IMG/VR virus record: IMGVR_UViG_3300031857_000124 | Span: 4,496-68,495 of that record | Direction: 5' to 3' (one strand) | DNA from: a virus | DNA: 64,000 nt | Shown: piece after piece, positions 40,732 to 63,484 of the stretch | Position numbering within the stretch: position 1 is the first letter of the stretch | How the letters are laid out: each line of letters starts with the position of its first letter | The notes under the pieces: generated by a model | What the model was told of the DNA's origin: nothing | Database searches by the model: none | The model's input: the letters and a program-made list of their open reading frames with translations, nothing else | Program-made: the position numbers and the translations under genes

Positions 40732-41049
40732 TCAAAACGGCACCCCGTCGCTTTCGTAGACATACTCTCCCACAAGCTCTCTTCTGCCGGAATTATTGAT
40801 CTTGGTTAATATACTGTTTTCTGAGTCTGTTTCGTACCAGAACGCTACCGGCTCTCCCTGACTTTCATCCGGGTCAGGTAGCAATGTAATATTTTCCGGG
40901 ATGTAGACATACGACTTCCCGGCCTTTCTGCAGGCCAAGGCTTCCTTGCAAACAACTGTCAGGCTGTTCCCGGGAGGAGGAGTCCCTCCGCCAGAAAAGA
41001 TAGCCATGATGTCCTTGGTTTTGATTATTGGGACCGTGATTTTTGTCAT
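40732..41049 (-). CDS. Hypothetical protein
   Basis: Coupled ORF in the leftward operon. Confidence 0.6.
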   Translation of the reverse strand: MTKITVPIIKTKDIMAIFSGGGTPPPGNSLTVVCKEALACRKAGKSYVYIPENITLLPDPDESQGEPVAFWYETDSENSILTKINNSGRRELVGEYVYESDGVPF

Positions 41050-41555
41050 ACGATGATCTTGATTTTGCTGACGTGATCCATTATTGGATACCCCATATTG
41101 GTCAGGATTTCAAACACCTGATCGGCAACAGCCCGAAAAGCTTTTTCGACACTGTACTTCTTCACAAAGGTTTTGTTCTCCACATGACCGATGGTGCAGT
41201 ACGCTTTCTTGTACTTGAATTTGTCCCCGAGTTTTTGTTGCGAGAACTTGGGGTACAGTTTTCTCATGGACCATATTGCAATGTGACGAGCCCTGACGTA
41301 ATTCGCCTCATTGGTTTTTCCATCGGTGATGTCTTCCTGCGGAATAAGGGTCACCAGACTGACTGCTGATAGCACGTCTGCCCATACGTTCATTGCCGGG
41401 ATCTTTGATACGTCCTCGATTCTTTTCTGCACGATGTCGATCTGTTTGTATATCTCGAATTCGTACTCGGACTTTGCGATCTTCGCAAGGTCTGTCAACA
41501 TTTCCATTCTGTGGTTGGGATGGCAGAAGGCCACCATTCTTTCGATCTCTCTCAT
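41046..41555 (-). CDS. DnaA domain IV-like HTH protein (paralog 1)
   Basis: RARHIAIWSMRK..FSQQKLG..F..YCTIGH resembles the DnaA C-terminal domain. Confidence 0.6.
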   Translation of the reverse strand: MREIERMVAFCHPNHRMEMLTDLAKIAKSEYEFEIYKQIDIVQKRIEDVSKIPAMNVWADVLSAVSLVTLIPQEDITDGKTNEANYVRARHIAIWSMRKLYPKFSQQKLGDKFKYKKAYCTIGHVENKTFVKKYSVEKAFRAVADQVFEILTNMGYPIMDHVSKIKIIV

Positions 41556-42080: not shown

Positions 42081-42590
42081 TTAAATTATGATGTGCATTT
42101 TATTTACGTGAATAAGTATTGAGTAGCCCTTGGACTCAAGTATTTCGCAGGCCTGTAGCATGAGCGTTCTGAAGGATTTCTCTGTAGCGTAGAGGCTTGG
42201 CACGGACTTGTTCTCAACATGGCTGACGGTGCAGTGCTTTCGTGGGTGGTCAAACATATTCCCCAAGTTGGTCTGCGAGAAGTGCGGGGCCAGCTTCCTC
42301 ATAATCCAAATCGCGATGTGTCTTGGCCTTGCGTACTCCCTCTCGCGAGAGTGTGCCGACGTGATTAGATCCACAGGGACAAAGGTCACCTCACTGACCG
42401 CAGACAGTATGTCGTTCCACACGTCTTTGGGGGACATGGATTCGGGGGGCGTCGGGGCCTGTTGATCAGCATTAATCTGCCGATAAATTTCAAACTCAAA
42501 TTCGGGCTTGGCAACTTTCGCAAGTGTTGCCAGCATCTCGGCCCTGTGCGGGTATCGGCAAAAGGCTACTAAAGTTTCAATCTCGTTCAT
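42081..42590 (-). CDS. DnaA domain IV-like HTH protein (paralog 2)
   Basis: SREREYARPRHIAIWIMRK..FSQTNLG..F..RKHCTVSH, aligns end to end with 41046-41555. Confidence 0.65.
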   Translation of the reverse strand: MNEIETLVAFCRYPHRAEMLATLAKVAKPEFEFEIYRQINADQQAPTPPESMSPKDVWNDILSAVSEVTFVPVDLITSAHSREREYARPRHIAIWIMRKLAPHFSQTNLGNMFDHPRKHCTVSHVENKSVPSLYATEKSFRTLMLQACEILESKGYSILIHVNKMHIII

Positions 42591-43228: not shown

Positions 43229-43390
43229 GGGTTTGATCTTTAATTCTAGATGTCTTGCAATTTTTTGCAAATATAAATCTATATGCGTTGTTTGTGCAAA
43301 TTATTTAACATTTAATGTTAAGAACTCCTAGATAATTTTCGGATCAATTCAAAAAAAATATAGGTTTTTTCGGTTTTTGTTTTACATTTG

Positions 43391-43492
43391 CTGCGTTCTC
43401 ACATTGCAGTGTTTGACGGCAGTGCAATGCGGGATGTAAGATCAAAATCTTACCCTGAAATGCCCTTGGTCCGTCAAACAAGGGCTTTTTTT
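43391..43492 (+). promoter_or_regulatory. Structured leader/attenuator with loop-loop complementarity
   Basis: Promoter element TACATTTG at 43383. Hairpin loop TTTGACGG is complementary to terminator loop CCGTCAAA. Confidence 0.7.
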
Positions 43493-44212
43493 ATGCCTAA
43501 GCGCACAGAAATATCAAGTATAATCTCAAGCGACACACTGTTTTCGAACGTAGAAAACATAAAGTGGCTTGAGAGGTTCGTTGAGTTCAAGCGGGCATTC
43601 CCAAACTCCGTGATATATAAATACTCTGCCTACCGAGTTGAAAAACTTGGGAGGTTAAAAATGTCACGTAACACAATCAAGAACACGATAGACAAGTTCA
43701 TCGAGCTTGGTTGGGCAACAAAGAATAAATCTCACCTCATTTTAATATCTAAAAACAAATTGTCTGCGCTCTATGGGGCAAAATCTCATAGAAAAATCAA
43801 ATTAGACACAACCCTATCCGTTAAGATTCAATTACAAGCAAAGGTGTTTAGCAGAGCCATCAATCGCTCTCGCTATGGTAAGTGCATGCAGGAAGTACAA
43901 GGTAAAAGCATCAGGCGTAAATACGCTAAATCACTCAGTGGCACTCCGCAGGAACTTTCTAGCAAAAAGATTGGGAAAATTTTTAACTCATCACAAACTC
44001 AAGCTCTAAGGGTGGTAAGAAGTCTGGAGAACAATGGGTGGATCACTGTACAACGGCAAAAACTCAAACATTTGGGTAAGTGTTCAGCCAAGCAGTGGCA
44101 GTTCAGAAAGGCGTGGTGGAACAAGAAGGAAAGTGTCGACAACTGCTTTTGGCATTTGGGGCATTTCTTCCATCTTCCATCTAATTCTTACCTCATGAAT
44201 AGCATACCCTAA
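43493..44212 (+). CDS. Basic tandem winged-helix DNA-binding protein
   Basis: Two HTH-like segments (MSRNTIKNTIDKFIELGW and SSQTQALRVVRSLENNGWI). Confidence 0.6.
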   Translation: MPKRTEISSIISSDTLFSNVENIKWLERFVEFKRAFPNSVIYKYSAYRVEKLGRLKMSRNTIKNTIDKFIELGWATKNKSHLILISKNKLSALYGAKSHRKIKLDTTLSVKIQLQAKVFSRAINRSRYGKCMQEVQGKSIRRKYAKSLSGTPQELSSKKIGKIFNSSQTQALRVVRSLENNGWITVQRQKLKHLGKCSAKQWQFRKAWWNKKESVDNCFWHLGHFFHLPSNSYLMNSIP

Positions 44213-44262: not shown

Positions 44263-44862
44263 TCAAATAAGGCTCATTTTACTGAGGTAATCACACTCCT
44301 CATTCATTTCCCTTGGAATCCATTCTATTTCAATGTTTGAGAACGCCCCAAACATTTTCTTACACTCTAAGCCGTAGGGCAGGTACAGTCCGTTTGCCCC
44401 GAACCCCCACACCCCATTCATTTGATTGACAACTAGGCTGGAGTCCCCCCTGACAAGTATGTTGTGGTCAGAGAAACTGTTATCCATAAGCCAGCACAGG
44501 GCATCGTAGAGGGCTATGTACTCTGCTGTGTTGGCTGAGTTTTTTGTGCTGGCCTGCTGTCTTCCTGAGGATTGGTGTATCCACCTCCCCCCTTGTTCGA
44601 CATAAAACCCCCACCCCATCTGCCCGTATGGGTTGACTGGTTCGCAGCATCCGTCAAAGTACACTATTAGGTCGCGATTAAAGTGTTTAAACGTCTCCGA
44701 CTCTACCTCCGCCCAGTAGCGCTCGTAGTAGGCGGATACGGCAGGGTACTGACCCCCCTCCCACGTTTCTTTAATCCACCATGCGGGGGTGTCTATCATT
44801 CTTTTACCCTTGTGTACCCCGAACGGGAAGGTGTCGCTGTGTTTTGCATTTTTGTTAGTCAT
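44263..44862 (-). CDS. rnhA: RNase H1-like protein with N-terminal FPFGxHKG domain
   Basis: VYFDG, NTAEYIAL, RGDSSLVVNQ and WIPREMNEECD motifs. Confidence 0.85.
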   Translation of the reverse strand: MTNKNAKHSDTFPFGVHKGKRMIDTPAWWIKETWEGGQYPAVSAYYERYWAEVESETFKHFNRDLIVYFDGCCEPVNPYGQMGWGFYVEQGGRWIHQSSGRQQASTKNSANTAEYIALYDALCWLMDNSFSDHNILVRGDSSLVVNQMNGVWGFGANGLYLPYGLECKKMFGAFSNIEIEWIPREMNEECDYLSKMSLI

Positions 44863-60428: not shown

Positions 60429-62369
60429 TTATTCCCAGGCTTCCTTGTACCCGTTTGGGTGCGCTATGTCTTCGTTCCATTCTTTTGCTTCTTTTGAATC
60501 CGTCCAGTTTCTGTTAGGACTTACTGCGCTTGGTGTTTCTTGCTTAATTTCAATCTGGACAGCCCTCCCGTCTATTGCCTGTTGAAGGTAGTCTACACCG
60601 TCAAAGGTAAACCTCCTCGTGTTCCTCTGTAGTTGAAATTCAAACGACCCCTTTAGTCCAACTATCTTCTGTCTTCTGATCTTCTTACTGTGAAACTCGC
60701 ACACGGGGCTGTCTGGGGCTGTCTGAGCGAATGGACGGTGGTATATGATGATGTTATCCGCCTTGTTGTTCCACATCGCACCATCTGCAAGGTCAAACAC
60801 CTCTGGACAAGGATAATTCCCATCCTCTCCTTTTCTCATTTTGTGCGGGTGAACCACGATGTCGAAGTACACGTTGTTCTTCCTCGCAAACCGTGTGCAG
60901 TCAGAAAGGAAAGTTTCGAGGTACTTGTCGCTGCGTCCCGCACCCTTTGAGTAATCGTTTGCCATTTGGTTGAACGGATCAATAACCACCCTGTCAACTC
61001 CGTGCTTGATGATCAGGCTCAGGAACACCTCCTTCACGTAATCTGGTGTGGGGGCTACGTTCTTCGGGTACACCATGAAAATATGGTCTCCAATCATCTT
61101 GTACACCTTCATGTACGCATCGTATGATGGGCGTGTTGGGTTACTTGGTGTGCAGTCTCTCCCAAAGTAAATCTCTACAAGGTCGTGGTAGAACTGTTCG
61201 GCAGGCAGTTCCTCAGGAGTAAAGATGGCAACCCTCTCCCCAAACCTAACCATACGCATTATCATCTCCCACTTCATGAATGATGACTTTCCGTAGTTTC
61301 CTATTCCGGAAACAATTGTTAATTCGCCTTTAACTCTTTTGAAGTGCCTATCGAGCAATGGGACGCCGACGGGCATTGCTGCTTGATAACCCTTGAGGTA
61401 AATTTCCCCAGCCCTATCCATCACCTCCTCGGCATAGATTACGTCCTCCTTAGACATTTCATCGAGGTCCTCTTCGGTTAGCTCAATCTTAACCTCCTTG
61501 TGGCTACTCTTTGTAACTAACTGATCCTTAGTGAACTCGGCAGTATTCCACTGGCTCATGTTCGCCCTGTACGCACTACGGATGGCCTGGCGACACTCCT
61601 TCTGACTGAAGCTTGCATCAGGAACGACGTAGGTCATCATCATGCTGTAGCACGTCTCCTCGAGCATCCCGAACCTACAGCAGCTTGCGGCCAGCTTAAA
61701 AACGAAGTGATTCCTTTCCCCCTCACGGAACGCATCCCCCTTGGATGTCATCCACGTCAGCAGGTTGTTGAATATCTTGTCGTCATCGTTAATCGTTTCA
61801 GTGGTTGTCTGTTGGGGCAACCTTCTATCGGCCTTTTTTACAGGCAGTTTGTTGTACGTCTCGGCGTTCTCGTTGTACCAAAGATTGGGATCATACGACT
61901 CAAAGCAGAGTCGGGACAGGTTCTTTCCGGTCTTGTCAATGTCTGGAAAGTCATTCATTAAGGCCTCAAAGTGCTCTTTGTGCATGGTTTTCCATTCAAT
62001 TTGGACGAGCGCCTTCAATCCCTTGCCAGATGGGGAAGTCCAAACAGCTGTTATGTACCCTAAAGAGCACAGTTCTCTGCGTTTTTCGGCCATGTCTGAC
62101 ACGTTATCGAAGTCCAAAACAATGTACCCGGAATGTTCGACAAGTTCAGAGTCCTTTCGCTTTGAGAACGTGCCGCTGAAACAAACGGCAGGGAGTTTCT
62201 TTTTTAACTCGTCCGCCTCCTTCTTGGTTTTTGCTTGCCTCGCCTTGTTAACAAGCTCCTTTGACTTCCCATTCCTAATTCGTTCAAGTGCGCCCAACAC
62301 ACTAATTGTGTGTCCCTGCAGGTCGTTGAAGTCTTGGTAGATTGATACTTTACCATCTATTGGTCTCAT
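60429..62369 (-). CDS. Primase-helicase (BT4734/VirE-N-like AEP, PriCT, SF4 helicase)
   Basis: KKKLPAVCFSG, LDFD, SPSGKGLK, EGERNH, Walker A GIGNYGKS, VIDPFN and VVHP. Confidence 0.85.
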   Translation of the reverse strand: MRPIDGKVSIYQDFNDLQGHTISVLGALERIRNGKSKELVNKARQAKTKKEADELKKKLPAVCFSGTFSKRKDSELVEHSGYIVLDFDNVSDMAEKRRELCSLGYITAVWTSPSGKGLKALVQIEWKTMHKEHFEALMNDFPDIDKTGKNLSRLCFESYDPNLWYNENAETYNKLPVKKADRRLPQQTTTETINDDDKIFNNLLTWMTSKGDAFREGERNHFVFKLAASCCRFGMLEETCYSMMMTYVVPDASFSQKECRQAIRSAYRANMSQWNTAEFTKDQLVTKSSHKEVKIELTEEDLDEMSKEDVIYAEEVMDRAGEIYLKGYQAAMPVGVPLLDRHFKRVKGELTIVSGIGNYGKSSFMKWEMIMRMVRFGERVAIFTPEELPAEQFYHDLVEIYFGRDCTPSNPTRPSYDAYMKVYKMIGDHIFMVYPKNVAPTPDYVKEVFLSLIIKHGVDRVVIDPFNQMANDYSKGAGRSDKYLETFLSDCTRFARKNNVYFDIVVHPHKMRKGEDGNYPCPEVFDLADGAMWNNKADNIIIYHRPFAQTAPDSPVCEFHSKKIRRQKIVGLKGSFEFQLQRNTRRFTFDGVDYLQQAIDGRAVQIEIKQETPSAVSPNRNWTDSKEAKEWNEDIAHPNGYKEAWE

Positions 62370-63057
62370 CTGTAGTAGGTGTTTGTTTTATCGTTTGTTT
62401 TGTTTGTGTTTCATCCTCCCATCTCCTGTCGCGAAGGTATCGCACAGGATCCTTCCAGTACTTGCGTTCGCGCCCCGATTTGTGGTTCCCCATGCACTCC
62501 ACGGCAAGTATGCGATCTTTTTCATGCAGTTTGTTCCATGCAGCTTCTGCTTGTTTCTTGTCCACTTTCTTGTCGTAAGCCATCCAAAACTGCTCGAAAG
62601 AATACTTATTTTCTTCTTTTACTTTATTCTTTTTATTATGTGAGCATTCCTGAGCAGGGGTATGCTCATTTTTGAGCAGGGGGTATGCAGGTTTTTGAGC
62701 AGGGGTATGCTCAAAAAAATCATCTTCCTCATTTTCAGACACTGGTATCTCGGGGGTAACTGTTCTGCTTAAAATGTCGGCATCTGGATTTATAGTTAAA
62801 CATCTAACCTCAACCTCATTTCTGGTATTGAGTTTCACAATTCTCCCCAAAACACCTTTCTGTTCGAGATCAGCAATTATCCGTCTCACACTGTGCTTGG
62901 ATATCCCAAGGCATTCACCCAGATAATGATTTGAGGCAAAGCAATAGCCCCTGATGTTTGATAAATTCGAAATAACCCCTATAAGGAGTTTTTCCGTGGA
63001 TGATAATTCCTTGCTAAGCAACACACTTGCAGGGATAATTGAATATTGATTGTGCAT
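62350..63057 (-). CDS. HTH replication initiator (lambda O-like architecture)
   Basis: GYCFASNHYL HTH, FEQFWMAYDKK C-terminal domain, internal iteron-like repeats. Confidence 0.75.
   Translation of the reverse strand: MHNQYSIIPASVLLSKELSSTEKLLIGVISNLSNIRGYCFASNHYLGECLGISKHSVRRIIADLEQKGVLGRIVKLNTRNEVEVRCLTINPDADILSRTVTPEIPVSENEEDDFFEHTPAQKPAYPLLKNEHTPAQECSHNKKNKVKEENKYSFEQFWMAYDKKVDKKQAEAAWNKLHEKDRILAVECMGNHKSGRERKYWKDPVRYLRDRRWEDETQTKQTIKQTPTTDETNRW
62651..62713. repeat. Iteron-like repeats TGAGCAGGGGTATGC (x3) inside the initiator gene
   Basis: Copies at 62651, 62673 and 62696. Confidence 0.8.
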
Positions 63058-63166
63058 GATAAAATAAAAAAGCCCCGTGTAAGGCACCGGGGCTTGGGTT
63101 GGTCAAACTTGCGTTCAACTTGCCAAACCCTTCTTTTCGGCCTTACTCAAAAAGAAGGAATTGGCA
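63058..63166 (-). promoter_or_regulatory. Structured leader/attenuator with loop-loop complementarity
   Basis: Hairpin loop GTAAGGC is complementary to terminator loop GCCTTAC. U-tract precedes the ATG. Confidence 0.7.
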
Positions 63167-63268
63167 CAAATACATCGCAAAGATAATCCTGTTTTTTCAC
63201 TTGTCAAGACTTTACTCATATTTTTTTCAGTCTATTGACACAGTGCATATTATTTGTATATTTGCCGC

Positions 63269-63484
63269 ATGAGTAAACTTATTCCGCCAGACCACACGGT
63301 CTTTGTAAACATAGAATCGCGCTCAAAGGGGAGCGTGAAGGCTGTGATAACCGATGTTGGGAGCGGCGTTGACTATGAGGTTGGTCAGCGCGTCGGCATT
63401 ATTGGAAAGATAGACAACCTTGAAATACAGGGGGACTCAAGGTTCTCCGTTCACGAAAAATACATTGCGTTTTTATATGAGTAA
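63269..63484 (+). CDS. Small GroES-like fold protein
   Basis: AVITDVGSGV..EVGQRV pattern. Confidence 0.45.
   Translation: MSKLIPPDHTVFVNIESRSKGSVKAVITDVGSGVDYEVGQRVGIIGKIDNLEIQGDSRFSVHEKYIAFLYE

Follow-up and report, generated by a model that had tools for sequence, protein, structure and literature searches.

A candidate kissing-loop attenuator with covarying loops ahead of the replication genes of an uncultured, probably Bacteroidota phage

What is the role of an RNA leader in which the loop of the terminator hairpin is complementary to the loop of a hairpin upstream of it? This question is raised by a leader of about 110 nt (leader 2) on the minus strand of the window, by which we mean the whole stretch of 64,000 nucleotides analyzed here. 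Leader 2 occupies the region between a divergent plus-strand gene, starting at about 63269, and the gene of a replication initiation protein (rep). An earlier note on this DNA had interpreted it as a kissing-loop attenuator and as the second copy of a layout also found at 43.4 kb (copy 1).

The window belongs to a single phage contig of 68,495 bp with about 2.9 kb repeated at its two ends, which suggests terminal redundancy or a circular assembly and a unique genome of about 65.6 kb. Leader 2 is present twice in the contig, at genome positions 1973-2062 and 67565-67654, the latter corresponding to 63070-63159 of the window. A block of minus-strand ORFs runs leftward from 63057 to about 44263 with leader 2 at its head, and the gene after rep in this operon encodes a primase/helicase (Table 1). 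The 26 ORFs scanned include terminase, portal, endolysin and recombination genes, with no integrase among them; the large terminase is of the conventional type. The host group is probably Bacteroidota, judging from the promoter consensus and from the BT4734-like domain of the primase/helicase. A blastn search with 62350-63300 against public phage records gave no match, and no relative of rep was confirmed in genome contigs. Besides, the minus strand encodes two paralogous 169-aa proteins (41046-41555 and 42081-42590) with no PHROG match, whose C-terminal halves resemble, by eye, the C-terminal DNA-binding domain of DnaA.

Table 1. Positions of the two leaders, their parts and the neighboring genes in the window
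Feature	Position	Strand	Details
Promoter of leader 2	TTG(ACA) 63207-63202; TATCTTTG 63185-63178	minus	19-nt spacer; Bacteroidota-type
H1 hairpin, leader 2	63165-63122	minus	outer helix GCCAA/UUGGC, inner helix CCUUCUUUU/AAAAGAAGG, 12-nt loop; from the fold
H1 inner arms (DNA)	CCTTCTTTT 63158-63150; AAAAGAAGG 63137-63129	minus
K1, in the H1 loop	63146-63140	minus	GUAAGGC, complement of K3
H2 hairpin, leader 2	63119-63102	minus	GUUGAAC[GCAA]GUUUGAC; GCAA tetraloop, two G.U pairs; from the fold
Intrinsic terminator, leader 2	63095-63066	minus	AAGCCCCG/CGGGGCUU, 10-nt loop, U6; from the fold and the terminator call
Terminator arms (DNA)	AAGCCCCG 63095-63088; CGGGGCTT 63077-63070	minus
K3, in the terminator loop	63085-63079	minus	GCCUUAC; 2 unpaired nt on its 5' side, 1 nt on its 3' side
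T6	63071-63066	minus
rep ATG	63057-63055	minus	8 nt past the U-run
rep, replication initiation protein	62350-63057	minus	235 aa; phrog_270 (8e-30), Pfam HTH_36 (2.7e-10)
Primase/helicase	60429-62369	minus	BT4734-like_N (4.9e-21), PriCT_1, phrog_18375 (5.7e-57)
Copy 1, whole	43383-43492	plus	same layout as leader 2 with other letters; ATG next
-7 box, copy 1	43383-43390	plus	TACATTTG
H1 hairpin, copy 1	43398-43433	plus	K1 GUUUGACGG at 43411-43419
H2 hairpin, copy 1	43437-43452	plus	UAAGAU[CAAA]AUCUUA
Terminator, copy 1	43462-43485	plus	GCCCUUG/CAAGGGC; K3 CCGUCAAAC at 43471-43479
U7, copy 1	43486-43492	plus
239-aa gene	43493-44212	plus	weak MarR-like HTH matches; starts right after copy 1

All the elements that the earlier note had listed for leader 2 (a hairpin with GTAAGGC in its loop, a GCAA hairpin, a terminator with GCCTTAC in its loop, T6 and the ATG) were found on the minus strand. 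The minimum free energy structure given by RNAfold, at -47.8 kcal/mol, consists of three hairpins: a long 5' hairpin (H1), a second one (H2) and a GC-rich terminator, which together with the U6 span 63165-63066. Its z-score is -4.97, and none of 200 dinucleotide shuffles was as stable. The leader has what we looked for in an intrinsic terminator, a GC-rich stem with a U-run immediately after it. The segments K1, in the H1 loop, and K3, in the terminator loop, are exact reverse complements of each other. When the RNA was refolded with the 3' arm of the terminator removed, H1 and H2 stayed as they were and no nested antiterminator helix formed, which leaves K1:K3 as the sole conserved long-range pairing seen.

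One could argue that the complementarity arose by chance between two unrelated hairpin loops. We estimate the probability of a single 7-mer match between loops of 10-12 nt at about 0.002, a value that is not negligible genome-wide, and the count of GTAAGGC across the window (8 matches for 6.2 expected) is uninformative. We also used a descriptor consisting of a terminator hairpin with a T-run whose loop has at least 7 nt of Watson-Crick complementarity to a hairpin loop at most 90 nt upstream. Over the whole 68.5-kb genome it matched only the two leaders, out of 20 terminator-like calls.

Regarding the promoter, we take TATCTTTG to be the -7 box, probably of the Bacteroidota type (consensus TTG / TAnnTTTG). 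A sigma-70-like match, TTGACA-16-TATCTT, is the same site as TTG-N19-TATCTTTG, and both boxes are conserved in the closest relatives of the window (loci L214 and L215). The earlier note had assigned the role of promoter box to TGTATTTG (63174-63167). This motif lies 10 nt downstream of TATCTTTG and has a G where the consensus has an A, so it is probably not the -7 box, and TATCTTTG fits better. In the gap between the terminator and the rep ATG there is one weak sigma-70-like match (9/12) and no convincing promoter. Since, in addition, the terminator ends 8 nt before the ATG, the rep mRNA should come from read-through, which by position would make the leader an attenuator. Sigma-70-like matches on the plus strand inside the stretch, such as 63011-63039, also score a weak 9/12. 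A leader peptide was considered and set aside: the ATG inside TGTATTTG, like the one in the relatives' TATGTTTG, lies in or at the -7 box (by eye).

Other features were observed on the upstream side. The divergent gene encodes a 71-aa protein (63269-63484, plus strand) with no Pfam or PHROG match and, by eye, a small, beta-rich, GroES-like look; the divergent promoter region is conserved in L214 and L215. Relatives L001 to L026 carry a palindrome, CAACCTCGCGTGGTTG or variants of it, between the TTG and TATGTTTG, some 20-45 nt upstream of the leader (for instance at L174:968-983), which is possibly an operator. The window, L214 and L215 have no such palindrome and show the divergent gene arrangement instead.

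To see how the leader varies, we collected 26 loci with relatives of rep from IMG/VR. The leader stands directly before the ATG in 25 of them, and the remaining locus, L022, is cut off. Alignment A1 contains the 22 distinct leaders upstream of rep homologues, that is, the window and 21 relatives. The structure described above pairs 94.9% of its cells, compared with 39-51% when the partners are slid. Changes on both sides were present in 14 of the 31 pairs, and none of 500 shuffles reached the observed covariation score. By element, 9 of the 16 pairs of H1, 3 of the 9 of the kissing helix and 2 of the 6 of the terminator (with 99% of cells paired) had changed on both sides; in the kissing helix the row of the window is one column out of register and hence scored as unpaired. 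G.U pairs are frequent, H1 included (columns 28-43, to take one pair of the alignment, have GU 12 times and GC 9 times). This favors an RNA made from this strand over duplex DNA. RNAalifold recovered H1 and the terminator from A1 independently. The structure, its covariation and its position before rep are thus directly observed.

The K1/K3 match is present in all 21 relatives' leaders of A1, corresponding to 25 loci, with only two combinations of letters, or addresses: X (AAGAGCAAC/GTTGCTCTT) and Y (AAGAACCAC/GTGGTTCTT). H2 is replaced by different small hairpins in relatives other than L214 and L215, and is shuffled among them, with the same H2 types accompanying the X and the Y address. The Rep proteins have three N-terminal types, each of which occurs with X and with Y. 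In three loci with the Y address (L020:1327-1461, and also L025 and L026) we observed that the H2 loop holds TTGCTCTTAC, a 10-nt identity to the terminator-loop region of X-type leaders that could pair with an X-type K1; it is possibly a cross-type decoy or the relic of a duplication. A metagenome scan gave eight loci, at least three of them apparently duplicates of IMG/VR contigs, and the new leaders read there (L168 and L169) have the known X and Y addresses. Two pattern scans were discarded: the one with the relatives' copy-2 H1 stem was too unspecific (at least 116 stretches), and the one with the window's own H1 stem gave six matches, all in unrelated sequences.

The set was broader when we started from the primase/helicase, with 65 loci. 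A covariance model built from A1 (R1, whose E-values are rough) was searched on the window and on the 39 of these loci judged not to be covered before; in 34 of the 39 it located a plus-strand leader ahead of the rep-primase pair. Those missed were L216, with too little upstream DNA, and L226, L227, L228 and L234. In alignment A5, inspection by eye gave 7-9 nt of Watson-Crick complementarity between K1 and K3 for each of the 13 rows. Six addresses, also read by eye, were new: GTGGAGT/ACTCCAC, GTACGAGC/GCTCGTAC, GGACTAGC/GCTAGTCC, GTAGAGC/GCTCTAC, GTAAGGAA/TTCCTTAC and GTCGAGAG/CTCTCGAC. In total, nine different complementary loop pairs were read in the copy-2 family.

The comparison with L214 and L215 is the closest one. 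Over the 63 columns 141-203 of alignment A6, which run from GGGTTTGG through H2 and the linker to the end of the terminator, only four letters differ between the window and these relatives, all of them in K3 (GCCTTAC versus ACTCCAC), while H2 is identical. Four differences in K1 (GTAAGGC versus GTGGAGT) compensate every one of the differences in K3. A stem followed by a T-run is present in every row of A1, of A5 and of the copy-1 alignment A2 described below, with a few runs broken by one other base (L214, L222). By eye, K3 mostly lies close to the 3' arm of the terminator, 0-1 nt being left on its 3' side and 0-3 nt on its 5' side (L236 is an exception), and the spacing between K1 and K3 varies between A5 rows with the length of the H2 region and of the terminator loop. 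R1 also gave minus-strand matches of 23-43 bits just upstream of the relatives' leaders. We did not count these as antisense RNAs, since they are explained by the reverse complement of the palindromic H1, the promoter palindrome and a T-rich stretch.

One of the loci missed by R1, L226 (1060-1195), belongs to a divergent lineage with a primase 53% identical, and shows a similar principle in a different architecture. By eye, an 11-nt 5' segment, TTGCAACATGA, is complementary to TCATGTTGCAA in the loop of a large terminator-like hairpin, ATAGATAGGGGGC/GCCTCCTATCTAT, which is followed by TTTTAT and stands directly before a 203-aa rep-like gene upstream of the primase. Only 7 nt separate TCATGTTGCAA from the 3' arm, and we judge that both helices could hardly form in full.

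Copy 1 offers a second family. Its relatives were retrieved with a pattern made of its H1 stem with a free loop, which gave 15 IMG/VR loci. Alignment A2 has 16 rows including the window; its H1 stem is invariant by construction of the search, and the terminator loop was outside the pattern. The terminator loop tracks the H1 loop through seven addresses, and 4 of the 8 pairs of the kissing helix show changes on both sides, with 99% of cells paired and one U.G wobble, in L040. Judging by contig names, both leader types are present together in at least five contigs of relatives. R1, built from copy-2 leaders alone, detects copy 1 with 23.6 bits and an E-value of 0.1 (on its rough scale), which suggests that the two families are alike in architecture and possibly distant relatives. 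The earlier note had described the two leaders as having the same layout and unrelated sequences; the layout holds, and in the light of this match 'unrelated' is slightly too strong. Its expectation that the loops would not cross-pair agrees with the loop sequences of the two copies, which do not match each other.

What follows copy 1 differs from what follows leader 2. Of the 16 A2 rows, only two, the window and L032, have the T-run immediately followed by an ATG. In L039 and L028, the two relatives for which ORFs were listed, the RNA has no co-directional gene after it; a convergent NinB-like gene comes next, with its 3' end at a distance of about 190 nt. In both of these relatives the RNA stands as a gene of its own. 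Past the T-run, the other 12 rows are similar to L039 and L028. Of the RNA class that had been proposed to gate HTH and replication genes, the position before rep is supported, with covarying loops in relatives, whereas the copy-1 family is not generally the leader of an HTH gene. In the window, the copy-1 RNA is separated from the NinB-like gene by the 239-aa HTH gene and an RNase H-like one (44263-44862, minus strand; phrog_531). L039 and L028 have neither at this place, as if about 1.4 kb had been inserted in the window or lost from the relatives. The copy-1 address has three matches in the window, where 0.6 are expected and 2 of 100 shuffles reach three. The third 9-mer, CCGTCAAAC, lies at 2013-2021 on the minus strand, antisense in the terminase gene. 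In the genomes of two relatives the 9-mer is present at K1 and K3 only, and we judged the third site in the window to be a chance match and discarded it as a target.

According to these results, chance complementarity of the loops is already refuted: it is kept with different letters through nine copy-2 and seven copy-1 address types, and what probability we still leave to chance is close to nil. The earlier note's view that chance is less likely is borne out by the covarying loops in relatives of both families. A different explanation of the same data is that the 7-10-mers act in the DNA, as inverted half-sites (an operator, iterons or an origin) for Rep or a repressor, the hairpins being incidental. 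Rep proteins often bind repeats adjoining their own gene, and inverted repeats would also covary if they followed a change in the specificity of a protein. However, the repeats coincide with hairpin loops, and the stems below these loops covary on this strand with G.U pairs among them, one of the K pairs is the U.G wobble of L040, and a U-run comes after the second hairpin in every member. Moreover, they are some 60 nt apart with a spacing that differs between A5 rows (by eye), and the type of address is decoupled from the type of the N-terminal, DNA-binding part of Rep. We regard the DNA-level explanation as very improbable.

The reading that we consider probable, from sequence comparison, is that the leader is an intrinsic-terminator attenuator in which K1:K3 pairing sets the read-through into the replication operon. 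The leader of this leftward operon (initiator, then primase/helicase) would fold into H1, H2 and the intrinsic terminator, and K1 in the apical loop of H1 would form a 7-bp kissing helix with K3 in the terminator loop. The hairpin with its U-run would function as a terminator under the control of the kissing helix, and transcripts would be split between a short terminated RNA and the rep mRNA in proportions set by the K1:K3 pairing. K1 and K3 together would constitute an exchangeable address that has to match within one leader.

As for the direction of the effect, we favor, with low certainty, that pairing promotes read-through. This follows from the analogy with the guanidine-IV riboswitch (see below) and from L226, in which the pairing is hard to combine with the full terminator stem. 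ColE1 RNAI/RNAII provides an example of kissing complexes in which 7-nt loops pair fully while the stems stay intact, so the pairing need not disturb the terminator, and the direction amounts to a guess. Besides, a kissing helix of 7-10 bp should be stable without a ligand, which counts against a switchable gate, and the leader could be a fixed, unregulated partial terminator. In the copy-1 family of L039 and L028 there is nothing obvious to gate, and a free-standing RNA would fit better there than an mRNA leader.

One could also argue for processive antitermination: the leader RNA would act in cis on RNA polymerase and modify it for the long early operon, the terminator being the first one to be overridden. 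The put RNAs of HK022 are the model for such a mechanism. The location of the leader at the head of the minus-strand block that reaches about 44263, and of a structured RNA immediately after the promoter, would suit it. Nevertheless, it leaves the pairing of the terminator loop with H1 unexplained, the copy-1 family of L039 and L028 has no downstream operon, and the Rfam scans gave no family similar to the leader. Altogether we find processive antitermination very improbable.

The cis attenuator may also be only part of the story. In an extension that adds to it rather than excluding it, the terminated RNA of about 100 nt would itself be the functional product and would act in trans on nascent leaders with the same address, from its own or a co-infecting genome. 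This would provide dosage control or immunity, with the letters of the address as determinants of immunity or incompatibility. The localized, compensated changes of address, the discrete types and the stand-alone copy-1 RNAs recall the specificity determinants of trans-acting RNAs. In L039 and L028 the copy-1 RNA forms a unit of its own from promoter to terminator, and no gene comes after it; addresses differ sharply between otherwise near-identical leaders, as in the window versus L214 and L215; and discrete types occur on shuffled backgrounds, decoupled from the N-terminal type of Rep. The X-like 10-nt TTGCTCTTAC in the Y-type H2 loop of L020, L025 and L026 would also be in line with it. Precedents, according to excerpts of PMC4825925, are the CI RNA of P4 with seqA and seqC, and IsrK, whose terminated short form acts on its own read-through form. 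Against a trans action, K1:K3 pairing within the molecule should outcompete pairing in trans unless it is sterically impossible, the genomes of two relatives have the copy-1 address at K1 and K3 only, and the short RNA would have to accumulate. We therefore hold the trans action as a tentative reading, to which we give roughly one chance in a few. In its broadest form, which we put forward just as tentatively, these leaders would be 'addressed' RNA gates. A hypervariable address of 7-10 nt would be written twice, in the 5' hairpin loop and in the terminator loop, kept matched under selection and diversified between competing phages, and the short RNA would read the addresses of nascent leaders in trans, sensing the dosage of the genome or excluding co-infecting phages with the same address.

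Should K1:K3 pairing indeed decide on termination, phage replication genes would be preceded by a ligand-free transcription gate with freely re-writable specificity, and nature would offer its own version of the orthogonal RNA attenuators that have been engineered. The way in which uncultured, probably Bacteroidota, phages time or limit their replication would become easier to approach, and the mosaic 'immunity-like' modules of these genomes may find an explanation. If the 'addressed' gates were true, an RNA-only system of immunity or copy control would be built into a terminator, and further cases would be expected before the replication genes of unrelated phages and of mobile elements. The window and L214 form a pair of natural variants that constitutes a ready-made compensatory-mutation experiment.

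Finally, we compared the leader with known systems. The whole window gave no Rfam family at gathering score, and permissive scans around both leaders (E-values up to 10) returned only sub-threshold noise, the best being the trpB motif (23.5 bits for a cutoff of 59) and Phe_leader (23.6 bits for a cutoff of 55). The possibility, raised in the earlier note, that the motif belongs to an Rfam family already described is thus answered in the negative for either leader. No such leader is described in the literature as far as the titles and abstract openings given by a full-text search show. The element is probably an uncatalogued RNA of a kind already known, that of RNA attenuators and kissing-loop control.

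In the attenuation of pT181 and pIP501 and the kissing copy control of ColE1 and R1, loop-loop recognition decides on a terminator before a replication-initiator gene, and in plasmid antisense-RNA systems the letters of the loops define specificity groups. Those plasmid systems rely on a countertranscript encoded by the opposite strand and on nested folds that exclude each other, whereas in the phage leader both partners belong to the sense strand and refolding gave no alternative nested fold; no antisense promoter is evident there beyond the weak plus-strand matches (9/12). The pRNA of phi29 has two complementary loops in one small RNA, which covary between related phages and pair between molecules over 4 nt to form a ring on the portal. 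Unlike it, the phage leader ends in a terminator before rep and has no Rfam match, and the phage has a conventional large terminase together with its portal.

In P4, according to excerpts of PMC4825925 and PMC3632133, complementary sequences control premature termination before replication genes. The P4 CI RNA (seqB), with seqA and seqC, is like the phage leader in having complementary segments on the same strand, in the untranslated leader of a replication operon. The difference is that the P4 RNA is processed and has two linear targets, which it reaches in trans, whereas in the phage leader the partners are two hairpin loops of one short RNA, one of them the terminator's own loop. In the Gifsy-1 prophage a single promoter gives rise to the short terminated RNA IsrK and to a read-through mRNA, and the short form acts on the long one (excerpts of PMC4825925). 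In the same excerpts the action of IsrK is on the translation of the read-through transcript, with no description of pairing between a loop and a terminator loop. Neither the Rfam C4 nor the IsrK family was among the matches, in the whole window or in the permissive scans of both leaders.

Along with the immunity system of the satellite phage P4, the nearest parallel in print is the guanidine-IV riboswitch (mepA / GGAM-1 motif), in which, as in leader 2, a terminator located just before the start codon has a loop that pairs with that of a hairpin upstream. According to excerpts of PMC7736828 and PMC11611296, this pairing governs termination, and the kissing loop that includes the terminator hairpin gives read-through. 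Around both leaders, the scans with E-values up to 10 gave no match to the Rfam model of guanidine-IV. The guanidine-IV loops are highly conserved and form a ligand pocket, while those of the phage leaders are hypervariable, pair over 7-10 Watson-Crick base pairs and show no sign of a ligand. Unlike guanidine-IV, the phage leader has an extra hairpin, H2, between the partners. Guanidine-IV precedes guanidine exporters and related genes such as mepA and sugE, and the phage leader precedes replication genes.
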